From: a virus
Taxonomy: Duplodnaviria; Heunggongvirae; Uroviricota; Caudoviricetes
Direction: 5' to 3' (one strand)
Length of the DNA: 43,025 bases
Virus record (IMG/VR): IMGVR_UViG_2700989413_000006
Span: 64,001 to 107,025 of that record
The notes beneath the pieces were generated by a model. That model was not told where the DNA came from, searched no databases, and saw nothing but the letters and a program-made list of their open reading frames with translations. A program made the position numbers and the translations under genes. This document shows, piece after piece, positions 16,198 through 38,530 of the stretch; positions within the stretch are counted from its first letter, which is position 1, and each line of letters starts with the position of its first letter.

Positions 16198-16215
16198 TAA
16201 GTCAGTCCTGACTGA
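16198..16215. promoter_or_regulatory. 18-bp palindromic box (TAAGTCA-GTCC-TGACTGA)
   Basis: Intergenic, between the tape measure and gpM genes. Confidence 0.7.
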
Positions 16216-32045: not shown

Positions 32046-32074
32046 AGGATACTTATAAATTTAAATTATGTCAA
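32046..32074 (-). promoter_or_regulatory. Sigma70-type promoter for terS and the late operon
   Basis: TTGACA (32074-32069), exactly 17 nt, then TATCCT (32051-32046). Confidence 0.7.
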
Positions 32075-32088
32075 TCAGTAGTGACTGA
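32071..32088. promoter_or_regulatory. 18-bp box (TCAATCA-GTAG-TGACTGA) overlapping the terS -35
   Basis: Shares four bases with the TTGACA hexamer. Confidence 0.75.
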
Positions 32089-32096
32089 ACTTTTAA

Positions 32097-32492
32097 TTAA
32101 TAAAAATAAGAAAGTGCATACCATAGCACACACGCTAGGGCTTCATTCTCGCTGTCAAACGGTCTAGTTACGCATTGTTCACCGCCAAAACAGAAGAGTG
32201 CAGCAAATTTATGTTCGATGTCTCTGGCTGGCTTGTGCGTCTTTTTAGCGCTATAAGGGACAGCTGGAACAATAAGGGGGTCGATTTTAAGTTTTTCTAG
32301 TTCAAGCTTTGTAATTTCAATATCTTCAGAGTATCTAGGGGCCTCAAAACATCCGGTGTCATCACATCGAATAGGCTTTCCATCAAAAAGCATTGTGTCG
32401 TGTCCGAGGAGCGAATCAATATCCGTATCTGTATCCGCTCCCGCCTCGTAATCGTAACCGATGATGAGGGCTTTGTGTTCATCTAGGGTCAT
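32097..32492 (-). CDS. Hypothetical protein, weakly phage ABA-sandwich / DUF2591-like
   Basis: PRYSEDIEIT and C-terminal EALACVLWYAL pattern. Confidence 0.45.
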   Translation of the reverse strand: MTLDEHKALIIGYDYEAGADTDTDIDSLLGHDTMLFDGKPIRCDDTGCFEAPRYSEDIEITKLELEKLKIDPLIVPAVPYSAKKTHKPARDIEHKFAALFCFGGEQCVTRPFDSENEALACVLWYALSYFY

Positions 32493-32594: not shown

Positions 32595-32921
32595 TTAAAT
32601 TGCGGTTGAGTCATCTTCGACCAGTGCGGTTTTTAATCCAGTAGAACCGCTCGGCTTAGGCATGTACTGTTGCGCCATATATTCACCTGTTGGTGTAGCA
32701 ATGTATGTGACATGTCTACGGCCACGGCGTTTTTCACTGCCTTTGGTGATGTACTTATGGTTTTTGATGAGCGACCGTATGGAAAACTGCAATGCCTGTT
32801 TCGTCGGCTTGTAGCTTAGCTCATTGAGAAGTTGATCTAGGTCTAAGTGAGTGCCGTCGGTATTCTTTTTAAATACCAGCAAGAGAATTTCAACTTGCTT
32901 CGGCGTCAAATTAACTGTCAT
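32595..32921 (-). CDS. Winged helix-turn-helix DNA-binding protein
   Basis: LTPKQVEILL...LDQLLNEL...TKQALQFSIRSLIKNHKYITK...TYIATPTG, a MarR-like wHTH pattern; start overlaps the GNAT stop. Confidence 0.7.
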   Translation of the reverse strand: MTVNLTPKQVEILLLVFKKNTDGTHLDLDQLLNELSYKPTKQALQFSIRSLIKNHKYITKGSEKRRGRRHVTYIATPTGEYMAQQYMPKPSGSTGLKTALVEDDSTAI

Positions 32922-33861
32922 AAGCAATGTCCTTTTCGCTTATTGCGTTGAGATTTAACGGCTCGTTAGGTAACTGGTTTTCAAACGCCATCAAAGGCAG
33001 ACGGATTGGAAGTTTTGGTTTGGTTCCCGCTTCTTTTGCCGCTTTAACGTCGGGGTTTACGTACACGCCGTATAACGGCGAAGCAAACACTAGCTGTTGC
33101 GTGTTTTTTAAGAGCTTTTCAATCGAGAGTGAGTCGACTCGCTTCGTTCCATTCATGCGGTTGTCTCCTGATTTCTCCATCGAACTAAAGGAATAGTAAA
33201 ACTTACGCATTTCGGCCACGCATTTTTCCCGAACTGGCGCGGGCATTTTTTCGATTTCCTGCATTACGCCAACAAAATCAGTCGGAATCGACTCGAACCA
33301 ACGACGGAAAAATTGTAATCCGCGTTCATAATTGGTGGCTCGTTTTGGTGGGGCGAACTGAATGCCGGCTTTAGCGGCAAATGGGTTGAATTTTGACATC
33401 GAGCTTTGAAACTCAATTAACAAACAACCACTCATACGCATCATTAAATTTTGCGCACGATAAGCAATCCCAGCGCCGCGATACATGGTGTCTAAAACCA
33501 GTCGCGAGTTTGTGCAGGCGTTGTTATTTAACCATAGGGCGCGGTGTCGATTGATCAAACGTGAATCTTTACCGTTGGTATTGGGGCGCAAATGTTCAAA
33601 CAGTTCATTTCTGCCTGATAGCAGCATTTTTGGAACCGTCATAACGCCGACGCCGATAGTTTGGCCATGCAAAACAACACGCCAATAACGCGGCCCGATG
33701 CCTAAAGTGTCCGCCTTGTAGTGGAGTTCATGCAGAAGCTCCCAATCCTCCTTTGTACCAGGCTCAATGTAGATTTCATTAAGCAGTGAAAGAAGGTGGT
33801 TAGTTGGAATCGGTTTTCGAACAATGAGGGCATCCTGATTGTCCATCAGAATTTCTTGCAT
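32911..33861 (-). CDS. GNAT-fold acetyltransferase (C-terminal half of the COG2401-type ABC-acetyltransferase pair)
   Basis: LHY motif, acetyl-CoA motif A RLVLDTMYRGAGIA, and E.QSSMSKFNPF..KAG. Confidence 0.72.
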   Translation of the reverse strand: MQEILMDNQDALIVRKPIPTNHLLSLLNEIYIEPGTKEDWELLHELHYKADTLGIGPRYWRVVLHGQTIGVGVMTVPKMLLSGRNELFEHLRPNTNGKDSRLINRHRALWLNNNACTNSRLVLDTMYRGAGIAYRAQNLMMRMSGCLLIEFQSSMSKFNPFAAKAGIQFAPPKRATNYERGLQFFRRWFESIPTDFVGVMQEIEKMPAPVREKCVAEMRKFYYSFSSMEKSGDNRMNGTKRVDSLSIEKLLKNTQQLVFASPLYGVYVNPDVKAAKEAGTKPKLPIRLPLMAFENQLPNEPLNLNAISEKDIAYDS

Positions 33862-33881
33862 ATTTCATCCCTGAAAAGAAA

Positions 33882-33899
33882 GTGGCCCGTCTGGGCCAC
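33882..33899 (-). terminator. Intrinsic terminator between thioredoxin and GNAT genes
   Basis: GTGGCCC-gtct-GGGCCAC followed by TTTCTTTT on the minus strand. Confidence 0.7.
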
Positions 33900-33904
33900 C
33901 GTTT

Positions 33905-34258
33905 TTAGAAGCCCCAGCTGTCCATTTGGGGAATGATGTTTGCTGGAGCGCCCATCAATCGCGACACTTCCTTGTCGGCTTCAAAAACAATCGTGACCGG
34001 CACCTGTCGAATACCCAATTCCATGAACTGGTCTTTGGTTTCATCTGACAGTTCCACCTGAATCACTTCAACGCCGCGCTTCTCTGCCTCTTCTAACAAG
34101 AGCGGCTTGTATCGTTTACACGGCCCGCATGTTGGGCTTGTGAAAACTTTGATGTAGCGTTTAGGCGCTGTTGTTTCTGCAGCTTCGGCAGTGTCTTGAA
34201 CTTGAATTTGTTCTTCAGTTGTCACAGCCGTTGCTGTTTTAGTTGTGCGTGGTGGCAT
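33905..34258 (-). CDS. Thioredoxin-like protein (CGPC)
   Basis: FTSPTCGPCKRYKPLL and the cis-Pro motif GIRQVPVT; low-complexity N-terminal extension; AAGGAG RBS before MPPR at 34258. Confidence 0.85.
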   Translation of the reverse strand: MPPRTTKTATAVTTEEQIQVQDTAEAAETTAPKRYIKVFTSPTCGPCKRYKPLLLEEAEKRGVEVIQVELSDETKDQFMELGIRQVPVTIVFEADKEVSRLMGAPANIIPQMDSWGF

Positions 34259-34268
34259 CGATTTCTCC

Positions 34269-34925
34269 TTAAATCGTTGATTTGTATTCATCATTTCGGT
34301 GGATTACGACCTTTTCACGGTATTTTTTGACGATCGTGACATTCGGCGCTAGGTCTTCCACCATATCGTCGTGAGTAGTCGCCACTAAAACGGTGGCCCC
34401 GACTTTTCGAGCGATTTTCTGAAGGTTGTAAGCGATAACTTTTGCTGTAGTTCGGTCGAGAACAGCTAAAAATTCATCTGCAACCCATACTTTGGCTTTG
34501 GATTCAATGAGTTTGGCTAAGCAAAAACGGTATCTTTGACCGTCAGACAGCTCATTTGGTTTGCGGATAAACAAATAGGCGTCGTTTAACCCGGCAATTG
34601 ATAGAAGATTTAATGCCTCGTTCAGATCCTTACCGATCTGGTCAATCAAAGGCTTATCTTCAAACTCAATAGCATTAATATCTGACACAGAAAGGCCGTC
34701 AGCTGACATAGCTTTTGATAGTTCGCGTAAAATAGTGGACTTGCCACTACCTGATTGACCTGTAATGTAAACAATGTCGCCTTGATCAATTGGCAGATCC
34801 AAATTATCAAAGACAACAAAGGTTTTATCATCAAGGCCAAGACCAAACGCTTCAGCGACTTCCAGAACGCGTTCACTTCGATTCACTTCCGTGTCAAATT
34901 TTTTGTCTATTCTGTATACGGTCAC
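34269..34925 (-). CDS. Stand-alone ABC-family ATPase with no membrane partner (N-terminal half of the COG2401-type pair)
   Basis: Walker A GQSGSGKST, signature LSDGQRYR, Walker B VWVADEF, H-loop VATTHDDM. Confidence 0.9.
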   Translation of the reverse strand: MTVYRIDKKFDTEVNRSERVLEVAEAFGLGLDDKTFVVFDNLDLPIDQGDIVYITGQSGSGKSTILRELSKAMSADGLSVSDINAIEFEDKPLIDQIGKDLNEALNLLSIAGLNDAYLFIRKPNELSDGQRYRFCLAKLIESKAKVWVADEFLAVLDRTTAKVIAYNLQKIARKVGATVLVATTHDDMVEDLAPNVTIVKKYREKVVIHRNDEYKSTI

Positions 34926-35563
34926 TGTGCCACCTGATTTTTGATGTACTCAATGAATGCATCCGCCCCTTCTAGGCCTGTTTCGCCTTCTGCCACAGCC
35001 ATAAACTGAGCGACAAATCGTTCATCCTTGCCTTTGATCTCTTTGAAGCCCAAAGCCTTATCGATCCGAACAGCTCGCGCGTCCGTTTCTTCGATCTTTT
35101 TGATGGTTTCTTCTGTTTGTTTGGCGATTTCACTGTCGAGATCCAAAACAATTGAATCCACATTCATTCCCGACAGGTCGGCAACTACGAAGTTGAGTTC
35201 CTTTTTGTCGAAAATGCCTTCCAAATCAAAGTTAAGGGTCTGAAGTTCTTTTTGGAGAAGGTCAGTGTCGATGTCACCAATGGCAACGCGGTTGTCGGCC
35301 AAGCGTGCCGCGCGAACTTGATGTTCATCAAGGTCAGATCGAACTAGAACTGGAACAACTTTCAAGCCAAGAAGCAAAGCCGCCTCGCGACGACCATGCC
35401 CCTTGATAATTACGCCTTCCTTGTCCACGACAATAGGTTGATCCCAACCAAATTCTTTAATTGACTGAGCGATTCGTTCAACTTGTGCTTTGTCGTGGAT
35501 TTTTGCATTCAGTTCGTATGGCTTAACTTCATCAACATTCCATTGTTGAATAATTAATTCCAT
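34922..35563 (-). CDS. ParB/Srx N-terminal domain protein (phage ParBc type)
   Basis: PYELNAKIH...IAQSIKEFGWDQPIVVD..GVIIKGHGRR...VPV...RLADNR; start refined to MELIIQQW. Confidence 0.88.
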   Translation of the reverse strand: MELIIQQWNVDEVKPYELNAKIHDKAQVERIAQSIKEFGWDQPIVVDKEGVIIKGHGRREAALLLGLKVVPVLVRSDLDEHQVRAARLADNRVAIGDIDTDLLQKELQTLNFDLEGIFDKKELNFVVADLSGMNVDSIVLDLDSEIAKQTEETIKKIEETDARAVRIDKALGFKEIKGKDERFVAQFMAVAEGETGLEGADAFIEYIKNQVAQ

Positions 35564-35570
35564 AGAGTGC

Positions 35571-36092
35571 TTATTCCTCTTCTTCGTCGGACTTGGTGTG
35601 AATGGCAATGCGCGTTTCGAGGATGTCTACGTAATCTGCCAGTACATCAAGTTGGTCTGCCATTTGGAACCACTCAACTTCAGTCACATCATCAGGCTTA
35701 CCTTTCAACATAAAGGCGTGAAGTTTATCGCGACGCTCTACTTGTTGAGCTAATTCTTCATAAAGGCGATCCAAGAATGTTTTGCCGTCCTCTAAAGCTT
35801 GTTCATAGAGTTTTTGGCAAAGTAAGTAACCTTCTAACTTCCAAATTTGACGACGGGCATTTTCAAAAGCCGCCTGTTCGCCTAATTCTTGGACGAAATT
35901 ATCTGGATGCGCACACGCAGACTCACCAACGATTTCAAAGCCATTTTTTAGCGTCAAAACACAAATTGTTAGCTTGCCCCCTAATACATGAAAGGCTTTT
36001 TTAACAATCTTTTCGTCGATTTGCTCTGGTGATAGGCGCGGCGCGGTACGTTGCAACTCCTGCAAACGCTGTTCAATTTCTTGTTCGTTCAT
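35571..36092 (-). CDS. Gp49-like (Phage_gp49_66) domain fused to a crAss001_48-like helical domain
   Basis: LTICVLTLKNGFEIVGESAC.HP.NF..ELG...A..NA..QIWKLEGYLL, then RLYEEL..Q..R.DKL..F...QL.VL..YVDIL.TRI. Confidence 0.75.
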   Translation of the reverse strand: MNEQEIEQRLQELQRTAPRLSPEQIDEKIVKKAFHVLGGKLTICVLTLKNGFEIVGESACAHPDNFVQELGEQAAFENARRQIWKLEGYLLCQKLYEQALEDGKTFLDRLYEELAQQVERRDKLHAFMLKGKPDDVTEVEWFQMADQLDVLADYVDILETRIAIHTKSDEEEE

Positions 36093-36103
36093 TCTCAGTG
36101 TCC

Positions 36104-36742
36104 TTACTTGAGTACGATGTGGGCTAAAGCGTCCCCTGCGTTAATCATTGGGTCGTCATCGTCATATCCTTGTGACTTAATAACGGCCTGAATGCGATCA
36201 ACTACTTTGTCCACTTGCTCCACAGGGACTTTGAAACGCATGATTTGGTGTGTTTGAACCGCCTTTCCTGAAGGCAATTCAATGTCTTCTTCTGGCAAAT
36301 TGAGATCAGCTAGAGCATCTAGGGCTATAGTTGAATTAGAGAAAATCGTGTCGATGTCAGAAGAAGTGAAAGGCATGAACGTAGCGAGGTCTTCGGGAGT
36401 ACCAATGTCCGCAAAGATTTCTGCCAATTTTAGTGCGTCGTCAGAACCGTACCGCCCGTTATCGAGCAGTCCAATTTCTTTTGCTTCAACGTCGCTGATT
36501 TTTCCAAGATTGAAAGCGGGCACCTTGTCCACTTTCATTTGTTTTGCGACTAGAGCGCGATGTTCCCCTCCGATAATTTGGAGAGTGCCATTGTTGAGTT
36601 GACGCACAACAATTGGCTTGAACATCCCACGACGCTCGATGGATGCCTTTAACTTAGCTTCATTTTCTGGCGACACGATGTTTGAGTTCCACGGGTTAGG
36701 CTGCAACTGTGCAGGGTCAACCCATATGAGTTCGTGTGTCAT
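36104..36742 (-). CDS. Second ParB/Srx-domain protein with a putative C-terminal dimerisation domain
   Basis: LQPNPWNSN...LKASIERRGMFKPIVVR...IIGGEHR; start refined to MTHELIWV because the upstream codons contain the operator box. Confidence 0.85.
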   Translation of the reverse strand: MTHELIWVDPAQLQPNPWNSNIVSPENEAKLKASIERRGMFKPIVVRQLNNGTLQIIGGEHRALVAKQMKVDKVPAFNLGKISDVEAKEIGLLDNGRYGSDDALKLAEIFADIGTPEDLATFMPFTSSDIDTIFSNSTIALDALADLNLPEEDIELPSGKAVQTHQIMRFKVPVEQVDKVVDRIQAVIKSQGYDDDDPMINAGDALAHIVLK

Positions 36743-36755
36743 AATTACTAGAAGA

Positions 36756-36773
36756 TCAGTCAGTACTGACTTA
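36756..36773. promoter_or_regulatory. 18-bp box (TCAGTCA-GTAC-TGACTTA) at the divergent ParB/helicase junction
   Basis: Lies in the 72-bp divergent gap. Confidence 0.72.
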
Positions 36774-36814: not shown

Positions 36815-38530
36815 ATGTCAGAGGTAGTTACGATTGCCGCCGACGCGGTAAATGCCGTGCTGAGTCAGCCCAGCACAAAAGTAAAACTAATCGTTCAAAA
36901 GGCGCTTTCGTACCAAGTTGACGGCGCTGAAACAATGGCTGTTTTTAAACAGCATAAGTGGGATGGCCGTTCGTCCTTCTTTGTGTATAAAAATTGCTCC
37001 TTCCCTGCCGGCTTTCTTCATTTCGTCGCTGCCAATCTTCGCCGTGAGGGGTACAAGGTCAATATTGTTCGCAAGCCCTTCCCTGCCCCTTTAGGCCCTG
37101 AGCGCCCACAGGTAGACGCTTTTGGTTATGACTCTAAATATGATTACCAACCAGAGGTTATGGACAGGTTGGTAAAACATGGCCAAATCATTGCTCAGAT
37201 TGCTACAGGTGGCGGTAAGTCACGTATTGCCCGTCTTTGTTTCGCTCGTATTGCTCGCCCTACCCTCTTTCTCACCACGCGCTCAATCCTGATGTATCAA
37301 ATGAAGGATGCGTTTGAGAAAGATATGGGCATTCCATGTTCTGTCTTTGGTGATGGGCAATTTGGCAACGTGAACGCTCAAGGTCAGACGACTATCAAAA
37401 TGATGTCGGTTGGCACAGTACAGACATTCATGAGCAAGTTGGAAGTCACCACAATTCAGGAAGAGTTCAATGTTCTGTTCAATGCCGTGCAGGAGAAGTT
37501 CAAAAAAGAAATTGTGGCATTGAAGGGCAAGTTAGCGAAAGCCAAGAAAAGTACAGCTGAAATTACAGCTGCTACAAATGATCTGATTTCTAAACAGCAG
37601 GCATGGTTGAAGGCCAACAATCAAGACATGGCCAATAAGGCCAAAGCCAAATTTGACGAAAAGAATATCGAGCGTCAAAAAACCATCAAGCTTCTTTCCA
37701 TGTTCGAGTTCGTAATTTTGGAAGAGGCGCATGAAGCTTCAGGTAATTCTTACTACGAAATCTTGCGCTATTGTAAGAATGCTCATTACCGCTTGGCATT
37801 AACCGGTACGCCGTTTATGCGTGAGAGCGAAGAGTCGAACATGCGTCTAATGGCATGCTCTGGCCCGATCGCAATCAAAGTCACTGAGGAAATGCTAATT
37901 CAGCGCGGTGTACTTGCTAAGCCTTACTTCAAATATATTGAGCTTCGCAAAAAGCCAGATCACCTTCTCCGCACTACTGGTTGGCAATCGGCATATAGAT
38001 TGGGTGTCACAGAAAATGAAGAACGCAATTTAGCTATTGTGAGTGAGATTATTCGAGCCAAAGCTTACGGTTTGACGTCGATGATTCTTGTGCAACATAC
38101 ATCGCATGGCGAGCATTTAAACGAGCTTTTAACGCAATATGGTTTACGTGCTGAGTTCATTAAGGGTGAAAACAATCAAGCTGAGCGCAAACTAGCGTTG
38201 AACAAGCTTGCCAGTGGTTCGGTTGATGCGCTAATTGGTACAACCATTTTGGATGTGGGAGTAGACGTTCCAGCTGTGGGTATGATTATTCTTGCGGGCG
38301 GCGGTAAGGCTGAAATTGCATTGCGTCAACGTATTGGTCGCGGTTTGCGTGCGAAGAAGATTGGTCCAAATGTGGCGTTCATTGTCGACTTTACAGACCA
38401 TTGGAATACACATACCAAAAAACATGCTACGCAGCGACGCGAGATTGTTTTGCATACTAAAGGTTTCGGAGAGAACATTGTTAATGATTTCAATTTTGAA
38501 CAATTAGGCTTCACCAGATTGTCTGCATAA
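36815..38530 (+). CDS. Superfamily 2 helicase (DExH/ResIII-like)
   Basis: Motif I IATGGGKS, motif II variant LEEAH, motif III LTGTP, motif V ILDVGVDVP, motif VI QRIGRGLR. Confidence 0.92.
   Translation: MSEVVTIAADAVNAVLSQPSTKVKLIVQKALSYQVDGAETMAVFKQHKWDGRSSFFVYKNCSFPAGFLHFVAANLRREGYKVNIVRKPFPAPLGPERPQVDAFGYDSKYDYQPEVMDRLVKHGQIIAQIATGGGKSRIARLCFARIARPTLFLTTRSILMYQMKDAFEKDMGIPCSVFGDGQFGNVNAQGQTTIKMMSVGTVQTFMSKLEVTTIQEEFNVLFNAVQEKFKKEIVALKGKLAKAKKSTAEITAATNDLISKQQAWLKANNQDMANKAKAKFDEKNIERQKTIKLLSMFEFVILEEAHEASGNSYYEILRYCKNAHYRLALTGTPFMRESEESNMRLMACSGPIAIKVTEEMLIQRGVLAKPYFKYIELRKKPDHLLRTTGWQSAYRLGVTENEERNLAIVSEIIRAKAYGLTSMILVQHTSHGEHLNELLTQYGLRAEFIKGENNQAERKLALNKLASGSVDALIGTTILDVGVDVPAVGMIILAGGGKAEIALRQRIGRGLRAKKIGPNVAFIVDFTDHWNTHTKKHATQRREIVLHTKGFGENIVNDFNFEQLGFTRLSA

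Follow-up and report, generated by a model that had tools for sequence, protein, structure and literature searches.

A terminase-linked ParB, ABC ATPase and GNAT module of an Acinetobacter phage-plasmid as a candidate DNA acylation system

A compact block of genes lies ahead of the packaging genes in a stretch of 43,025 nucleotides (positions 64,001 to 107,025 of IMG/VR virus record IMGVR_UViG_2700989413_000006), the whole of which is called the window below. The record comprises a virus genome of 107,025 bp, an SSU5-like phage-plasmid of Acinetobacter baumannii. Four of the genes in this block encode what we take, from comparative sequence analysis, to be a single machine and the functional core of the locus, namely two proteins with the N-terminal domain of ParB (ParB1 and ParB2), a soluble ATP-binding cassette (ABC) ATPase and a protein with the fold of the GNAT acyltransferases. 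What is established here is how these proteins fold, that their motifs are intact, that the four parts form a unit and that they are linked to terminase genes. We tentatively propose, granting it somewhat less than an even chance, that the machine, assisted by ATP and the ParBs, moves acyl groups from acyl-coenzyme A (acyl-CoA) onto phage DNA, either ahead of packaging or in the course of it.

The core belongs to a run of seven open reading frames (ORFs), all on the minus strand and read from 36742 to 32595 (Table 1). An earlier note on this DNA, drawn from its letters alone, had reported seven co-oriented genes with intact motifs, which our ORF and family searches confirm, and all of the motifs that it quoted were found. 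The genes are tightly packed: those for ParB2 and the ABC ATPase overlap in the bases GTGA, and the GNAT gene overlaps that of a winged helix-turn-helix (wHTH) protein. Pfam assigns ParB_N to two of the proteins, Phage_gp49_66 together with crAss001_48 to a third, and ABC_tran and Thioredoxin to one each; the last protein of the run gives a weak wHTH signal, and the 316-amino-acid (316-aa) GNAT-like protein has no match in Pfam or NCBIfam. PHROGs assigns a phage family to every one of the seven.

The case for a core of four begins with a survey of synteny, which the note had named as a check, across 80 related viral contigs that were chosen from the closer GNAT homologues, all belong to one phage supergroup and were mapped with the window proteins. 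In all 61 loci that span the interval from a divergently transcribed helicase gene to terL, the genes for ParB1, ParB2, the ABC ATPase and the GNAT-like protein are present in the same order, far beyond chance. The layout in Salmonella phage SSU5 and in the phages nickie and RHEph10 is ParB-(small)-ParB-ABC-(small)-GNAT-(small)-terS-terL, and a single search pattern finds the module in 389 viral contigs. The evidence that is independent of this supergroup comes only from a few distant fused forms, all from metagenomes. When the GNAT-like protein served as query in an exhaustive search without profiles, 180 representatives were returned, many of them proteins of 450-550 aa that carry an N-terminal ABC and a C-terminal GNAT domain in one chain; the phmmer matches of the query fall on the C-terminal halves of these ABC-containing proteins (E 1e-11 to 1e-4). 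The ABC domains of the fused proteins are 41-48% identical to the ABC protein of the window. COG2401 is described as an 'ABC-type ATPase fused to a predicted acetyltransferase', and the numerous fusions in this order bear out the earlier identification of the ABC and GNAT proteins as a pair of that type. Four proteins of about 670 aa (P0139, P0059, P0086 and P0097) extend the fusion to ParB-N/Zn-ribbon/ABC/GNAT, their N-terminal domain being matched by hhalign to the ParB1 family with a probability of 96.9% (E 1e-10) and to the ParB2 family with one of 97.8% (E 8e-13), so that the ParB-N proteins also find their place in the same system, as had been supposed. Because of these fused forms and the co-occurrence in 61 of 61 loci, we regard the four parts as one machine; the earlier view that all seven genes form one system finds support for the core but not for the Gp49-family, thioredoxin and wHTH genes.

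In a freshwater-sediment phage with no relation to SSU5, the triple fusion P0139 is followed immediately by a 158-aa gene in a terS-like position and then by terL, portal and a MuF-like gene. The ABC-GNAT gene P0095, found in a prophage, overlaps the terL end; the proposed coupling to terminase genes therefore recurs in unrelated phages. Another ABC-GNAT protein, P0082, adjoins a ParB-N gene, and P0056 adjoins DNA polymerase III alpha. In P0133 (L096:5111-7486), the C-terminal portion of a split family B DNA polymerase (PolB) and ABC-GNAT form one continuous ORF within a RecA/ligase/PolB module, and no ParB-N domain was found in the linker of this protein. These mutually independent contexts link the enzyme with packaging and with DNA transactions. 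Further architectures are seen in P0068 and P0048, with a LAGLIDADG intein inside the ABC domain and with C-terminal TFIIB repeats.

The ABC protein is a single soluble nucleotide-binding domain (NBD) with a complete set of motifs, consisting of GQSGSGKST (Walker A), LSDGQ (signature), VWVADE (Walker B) and the H-loop. The positions of these motifs are kept across 40 sequences, fused forms included, D150 being invariant and E151 nearly so. Residues 17-33 also form an N-terminal signature, ERVxxVAEAFG(L/I)G(L/I)D(D/E), in which F27 and G28 are invariant; it is common to the split, double-fused and triple-fused forms and could mark this clade. A role as a transporter subunit was considered and rejected, given that the folds are soluble, that there is no permease neighbour and that the partner in the fused forms is a GNAT domain. 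The earlier note had likewise seen no permease, and searches of Pfam, PHROGs and NCBIfam returned no membrane or permease family among the seven proteins and their neighbours.

ParB1 consists of a ParB-N domain of the CTPase fold followed by an acidic C-terminal half, its homologues beginning at M15, and its profile matches the Noc/ParB CTPase domains in the PDB (E 4e-12), with GGEHR corresponding to GERR and DNGRY to ENLQR. In ParB2, whose homologues begin at MELII and whose stop codon overlaps the start of the ABC gene, GHGRR aligns to the GERR of ParB and PadC structures, and GHGRR and DNR are invariant in the family alignment. Across the alignments of both families the box II arginine is invariant and DN-R is conserved. 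Both N-domains thus appear to have the ParB-CTPase fold with its phosphate-binding motifs (GxxR and DNxR-type) retained, and binding of nucleoside triphosphates (NTPs) is predicted. ParB2 in addition matches the N-terminal 165 positions of phrog_498, a family of ParB-methyltransferase fusions, with E 1.2e-37, in line with the earlier remark that phage ParB-N domains go with DNA methyltransferases. The two proteins have low isoelectric points (pI 4.8 for ParB1 and 5.0 for ParB2; 4.1-4.4 for the C-terminal halves, that of ParB1 being 4.1), and Pfam finds no HTH_ParB domain in either.

Database names such as 'ParB/RepB/Spo0J family partition protein' and 'ABC transporter ATP-binding subunit' would make of this locus an ordinary maintenance and transport set, in which the ParBs serve plasmid partition and the ABC protein is a transporter subunit. 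We consider this extremely improbable. The genome has a separate ParA of 225 aa with a 142-aa partner 48 kb away, ParB1 and ParB2 are acidic and lack HTH_ParB, no permease is present, and the module also occurs in nickie and RHEph10, phages that are not known as plasmids. The label 'ABC transporter ATP-binding subunit' carried by phrog_886, the family of the 316-aa protein, is a misnomer, as that protein has a GNAT fold. ParB1 and ParB2 are the only ParB_N genes in the 107 kb genome, and they have neither the centromere-binding HTH nor the adjoining ParA of a ParABS system. The partition-like cassette itself (G000:C1:51417-52519; L091:1418-2520) pairs a ParA of the AAA_31/CbiA/VirC1 type with an overlapping gene of no known family. 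A partition role for the two ParBs was accordingly rejected.

The structure prediction that the note had named gave a GNAT fold for the 316-aa protein and a winged helix for the 110-aa protein. The GNAT-like model, built by AlphaFold2 (AF2) with 29 homologues, reaches a Z of 11.4 in VIA-align and matches 144 chains at a Z of at least 8, and all 50 of the 50 best matches listed are GNAT-type acyltransferases or domains. It aligns over residues 26-270, the last strand being preceded by an inserted helical domain (about 178-259). Residues H47, Y48, R84, R120, R128, G131 and E150 are invariant in the 29 homologues, and R128 and G131 fall within the CoA-binding motif YRGAGIA (RGxGxA). This invariant motif, together with the ABC motifs and with ParB motifs that align with those of CTPase-type ParB and Noc proteins, supports the view that the parts would be catalytically competent. 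Foldseek matches of the model in the PDB include Mom, TmcA (structure 2zpa), NAT10 and Kre33. Among Swiss-Prot structures TmcA leads, making up about half of the best matches, in alignments that span the GNAT domain and the helical region after it with TM-scores of 0.25-0.32, and the Druantia protein DruA has the top TM-score (0.38); these Swiss-Prot matches are weak leads from modelled structures. The pI of 9.3 and the presence of TmcA, Mom, NAT10 and DruA among the structural matches support a leaning of the GNAT-like protein towards nucleic acids.

The same matches could point to acetylation of RNA as carried out by TmcA and NAT10, on transfer RNA (tRNA) or late messenger RNA, with the ABC protein replacing the helicase domain. 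TmcA, NAT10 and Kre33 all appear in the PDB list, TmcA is prominent in Swiss-Prot, and in nickie the genes for tRNA-Met and tRNA-Asn lie some 2 kb away from the module. This explanation nevertheless seems very unlikely to us, as the whole 107 kb genome contains 0 tRNA genes, the TM-scores to TmcA are low, and the links to ParB, terminase and DNA polymerase follow no obvious RNA logic.

The GNAT proteins of the split phage modules have in common a C-terminal tail motif, LPLxAFDNQxxxEPLxL (window 32911-33030, residues ~278-316), with P285, A292, F293 and Q296 conserved. The motif is absent from fused ABC-GNAT and short stand-alone forms, and the tail may serve as a docking peptide for another protein, with the ABC protein, a ParB, the wHTH protein and TerS as candidate partners.

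From these features we infer a DNA substrate, an acyl donor, roles for ATP and the ParBs, and a biological pay-off, in the following sequence. A promoter under operator control, of the same box type as that of the packaging operon, would drive expression of the four-part system, whose basic GNAT subunit would touch the phage DNA. ATP-driven dimerisation of the ABC protein may power engagement of the substrate or presentation of the base, a role that is proposed because of the analogy with TmcA and NAT10, in which the NTPase domain reportedly powers RNA cytidine acetylation. The two acidic, HTH-less ParB-N proteins could act as NTP switches that activate the enzyme or load it on double-stranded DNA (dsDNA). 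This role is suggested because of the analogy with ParB176, a phage ParB without a DNA-binding domain that the thymine dioxygenase 5mYOX176 needs in order to act on dsDNA (PMC13229309). The acyl group would then pass from acyl-CoA to an exocyclic base amine once the phage DNA has been replicated, ahead of packaging or while it proceeds, and the acylated DNA might be shielded from host nucleases or marked for packaging.

Several points weigh against this proposal. The nearest solved relatives of the ABC protein are transporter-type NBDs and not the DNA-acting Rad50, MutS or UvrA classes; the ParBs, as acidic proteins, have no recognisable DNA-binding domain; and the TM-scores to TmcA, Mom and DruA (0.25-0.38) are low and not clearly better than those to generic GNATs. 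In the literature searched, no modified base is reported for any phage that carries the module, and no study puts the module to the test. Inserts of the anti-defence type (Tad2-like) collect between the ABC and GNAT genes, which would also suit a counter-defence role that does not involve DNA. Finally, the terminase-adjacent position fits a protein target in the packaging machinery equally well. The ABC-GNAT enzyme may on that account acylate protein, either in packaging and the virion (TerS, TerL, portal) or in the host, with the ParBs as NTP-dependent regulators or adaptors. Among the solved GNATs with a Z of 10-11 to the model, most have proteins or small molecules as substrates, and there is precedent for acetylation of host proteins by a phage GNAT (Rac of phiKMV-like phages, as quoted in PMC7824862). 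We judge a protein substrate unlikely all the same: the fusion partners (ParB-N, a Zn ribbon, a PolB fragment, TFIIB repeats) indicate activity on DNA, the GNAT-like protein is basic, and ParB2 is akin to the ParB domain of DNA methylase fusions.

In addition to the core, the locus contains two inserts. The Gp49-family gene is found in 4 of 75 related loci, at two different slots, and the thioredoxin gene, which sits between those for the ABC and GNAT proteins, in 55 of 75; SSU5, nickie and RHEph10 have neither. The thioredoxin copies are 28-40% identical to that of the window (80% in L004, a near-identical contig), compared with 61-75% for the GNAT proteins. Alignments of ParB1, ParB2 and the GNAT proteins of close relatives contain no invariant or near-invariant cysteine. 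The genome also encodes the large subunit of ribonucleotide reductase (G000:C1:24673-26196; PF02867, E 4.5e-158), an enzyme that is the ordinary client of phage thioredoxins. A redox partnership between the thioredoxin and the core proteins was rejected for want of a conserved cysteine and in view of this reductase. A terminator-like hairpin that follows the thioredoxin gene would fit either the insertion of a thioredoxin cassette or attenuation. Because of the patchy distribution, the lack of conserved cysteines in the core, the presence of a plausible client reductase and the hairpin, we assign Gp49 and thioredoxin to the accessory genes of an insertion hotspot, outside the core. In RHEph10 (L003:5402-5704) the ABC/GNAT slot is occupied by a Tad2-like gene (Thoeris anti-defence 2, PF11195, E 5e-23), and the interior of the module is a hotspot for accessory and anti-defence genes.

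Such a hotspot raises the question of whether the module itself is a counter-defence device, placed at an accessory site before the late genes and acting on a small molecule or nucleotide by acylating or depleting an immune signal or an NTP. In favour of this, its slots hold variable genes (Tad2-like in RHEph10, Gp49, thioredoxin), proteins of the ParB/Srx fold can be NTPases that bind ATP, GTP or CTP (PMC12704722), and there is a structural lead to DruA. The core genes are nonetheless fixed in 61 of 61 loci, whereas genuine hotspot cargo varies; the adjacency to terminase recurs in unrelated phages, also with fused forms; and no sponge or signal-degrading family was matched in Pfam, PHROGs or NCBIfam. 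We therefore hold this explanation to be distinctly unlikely.

The wHTH protein presents a different case. Its model matches winged-helix proteins of the PadR/MarR type, its pI is 9.7, and it was detected by sequence in 70 of 78 loci, with a diverged copy in both of those inspected among the remaining eight. Neither it, nor terS, nor the other window proteins were detectable beside the distant fused forms. Its likely target is a palindromic box, AGTCA-N4-TGACT, with 8 copies across the window where 0.15 would be expected and 28 across the 107 kb genome where 3.8 would be. The copies (those of the window being 14-mers at 16200, 22716, 26406, 27433, 30116, 32073, 36758 and 39371) sit at junctions between operons, in late and replication regions, and the extended form of the box is (TC)AGTCA-N4-TGACT(GA). 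On the coding strand the 4-nt spacer is NNAC, and it is uniform inside each related genome. Diverged relatives keep a box before ParB1 and another before terS, in the same arrangement, and this indicates that the module and the packaging genes are placed under what appears to be the same operator-like control element. The putative recognition helix varies with the half-site, TKQSxQFSIR going with AGTCA, and TRQAITCSLN or S/TIHALAFSVR with AGTAA or AGTAG; this covariation, seen in 2-3 lineages, is a lead. No family was found for the ORFs at about 38.6-40.7 kb that could encode an alternative repressor for the box. The wHTH protein is probably a lineage-specific regulator and a candidate binder of the box, and a regulatory role is likelier than an enzymatic one because of the covariation of helix and box and the absence of the protein beside distant fused forms.

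A bolder interpretation would see the whole locus as a split ParB, in which the wHTH protein reads the roughly 22 boxes found across the genome as parS-like loading sites and the ParB-N switches load, spread and carry ABC-GNAT along the DNA, so that the entire genome receives a hitherto undescribed acyl base modification that is read at packaging or shields it from nucleases. This version is decidedly unlikely in our estimate.

The 4.2 kb locus is 100% identical to 27 A. baumannii plasmids of 104-114 kb in plasmid records, and a megablast search of the locus against phage records gave no match. At the protein level it has relatives in SSU5, in SSU5-like phage-plasmids of Klebsiella and E. coli, and in phages of Pseudomonas (nickie), Rhizobium (RHEph10), Stenotrophomonas and Xanthomonas. 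The operon precedes the packaging genes, as the note had it, although not directly, since orf131 intervenes between the wHTH gene and terS. This neighbour encodes an acidic protein with five cysteines and no family of known function, occurs in 21 of 78 loci and is not part of the core. On the other side, the divergent SF2 helicase is found in every locus that reaches that far; it is constant only within this phage group and was not seen beside the distant fused ABC-GNAT forms.

Table 1. Features of the locus and its neighbours, in window coordinates
Feature	Position	Strand	Remarks
Portal	30100-28400	-	assigned from position and annotated relatives
terL	31384-30140	-	Terminase_6C/6N, phrog_2
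terS-like HTH protein	31977-31387	-	phrog_867
terS-side box copy	32073..32086		abuts the -35 of a terS promoter-like site; TTGACA-17-TATCCT begins in the last bases of the box
orf131	32097-32492	-	between wHTH gene and terS; phrog_3134 E 4.4e-69; no Pfam match
wHTH protein, PadR/MarR-like, acidic tail	32595..32927	-	110 aa; phrog_900 E 2.9e-37; AF2 confidence score (pLDDT) 82
GNAT-like protein	32911..33861	-	316 aa; phrog_886 E 3e-147; AF2 pLDDT 88
Terminator-like hairpin	33881..33900	-	8-bp stem, 6 GC pairs, tail TTCTTTT; between thioredoxin and GNAT genes
Thioredoxin	33905..34294	-	CGPC; PF00085 E 7.4e-8; phrog_22
ABC ATPase, soluble single NBD	34269..34925	-	PF00005 E 4e-14; phrog_293 E 8.7e-57
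ParB2	34922..35563 (ORF open to 35608)	-	PF02195 E 1.4e-7; phrog_930 E 1.7e-99; motif GHGRR
Gp49/Sf6 gp66-family protein, crAss001_48-like C-terminal domain	35571..36092	-	PF13876 E 7.7e-25; PF21825 E 1.1e-11
ParB1	36104..36742 (ORF open to 36784)	-	PF02195 E 1.8e-11; phrog_723 E 5.7e-69; motif GGEHR
Palindromic box heading the operon	36758..36771		perfect palindrome AGTCAGTACTGACT; between -10-like TATAAG and ParB1 start
SF2 helicase (DEAD/DEAH, XPB/Res-like)	36815..38530	+, divergent	NCBIfam helicase matches

The idea of DNA acylation with ParB loaders is not new here. As quoted in PMC7824862 and PMC8256090, a computational study (Iyer, Zhang, Burroughs, Aravind, NAR 2013) had predicted DNA modification by the GNAT and ABC ATPase of phage ParB-terminase loci. 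According to these quotations, the predicted system shares with ours the two catalytic domains, the ParB-N companions and the place beside terminase, and its fused forms are direct sequence homologues; our locus, by contrast, has a split enzyme and a pair of ParB paralogues, with a wHTH gene and variable Gp49 and thioredoxin inserts interleaved. Literature searches for COG2401, 'ABC-type ATPase fused' or phage N4-acetyldeoxycytidine found nothing, and a paper on nicks in Pseudomonas phage genomes was set aside, as it deals with unrelated phages of 45 kb. The present analysis contributes the ParB-N/Zn-ribbon/ABC/GNAT triple fusion and the terminase genes beside it, as well as the PolB fusion; it also reclassifies Gp49 and thioredoxin as accessories and connects the wHTH protein with a genome-wide box. 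If the proposed acylation is correct, it would constitute a new chemical class of phage DNA modification, made by an ABC ATPase and GNAT enzyme type (COG2401), and a second, independent case of ParB-fold proteins that activate DNA-modifying enzymes. The module is widespread and present in genetically tractable systems, which makes a thirteen-year-old prediction directly testable, and knowledge of the modification would be relevant to the sequencing, restriction and cloning of these elements and to their movement from host to host.

Among characterised systems, phage Mu Mom resembles the GNAT-like protein in its fold and is itself a late-expressed phage DNA adenine N6-carbamoylmethyl transferase. 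However, Mom acts without ATPase or ParB partners and is not matched at the level of sequence; its structure (8bv8_B) is aligned with the model at a Z of 10.4 over 157 residues, a value within 1 of those for dozens of unrelated GNATs. TmcA and NAT10 also couple an NTPase to a GNAT domain, acylate a nucleic-acid base and are the best reviewed structural matches; in TmcA, however, the NTPase is of the helicase type, lies in the same chain and serves an RNA substrate, whereas here a separate ABC NBD is found, and the domain plan of TmcA and NAT10, with an N-terminally fused helicase-type NTPase and a C-terminal tRNA-binding domain, is not that of our locus. The enzyme may function as TmcA does, yet it falls outside that family. 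A sequence search of the PDB gave no sequence-level relationship to TmcA or Mom. Phage ParB-N domains are also fused to DNA methyltransferases (phrog_498; PMC12704722), and such fusions share with our locus a ParB-N domain that accompanies a DNA-modifying activity, here predicted, near late genes; in our case there is no methyltransferase domain, and no N6_N4 methylase in the genome, the catalytic partner being the ABC-GNAT pair. The 5mYOX176/ParB176 system (PMC13229309), lastly, likewise sets a ParB with an NTP-binding N-domain and no DNA-binding domain beside a DNA-modifying enzyme, there a post-replicative one, NTP binding and DNA modification both being predictions in our locus; the partner there is an Fe/2-oxoglutarate dioxygenase, whereas here it is ABC-GNAT, accompanied by two ParB paralogues and bringing an ATPase of its own.

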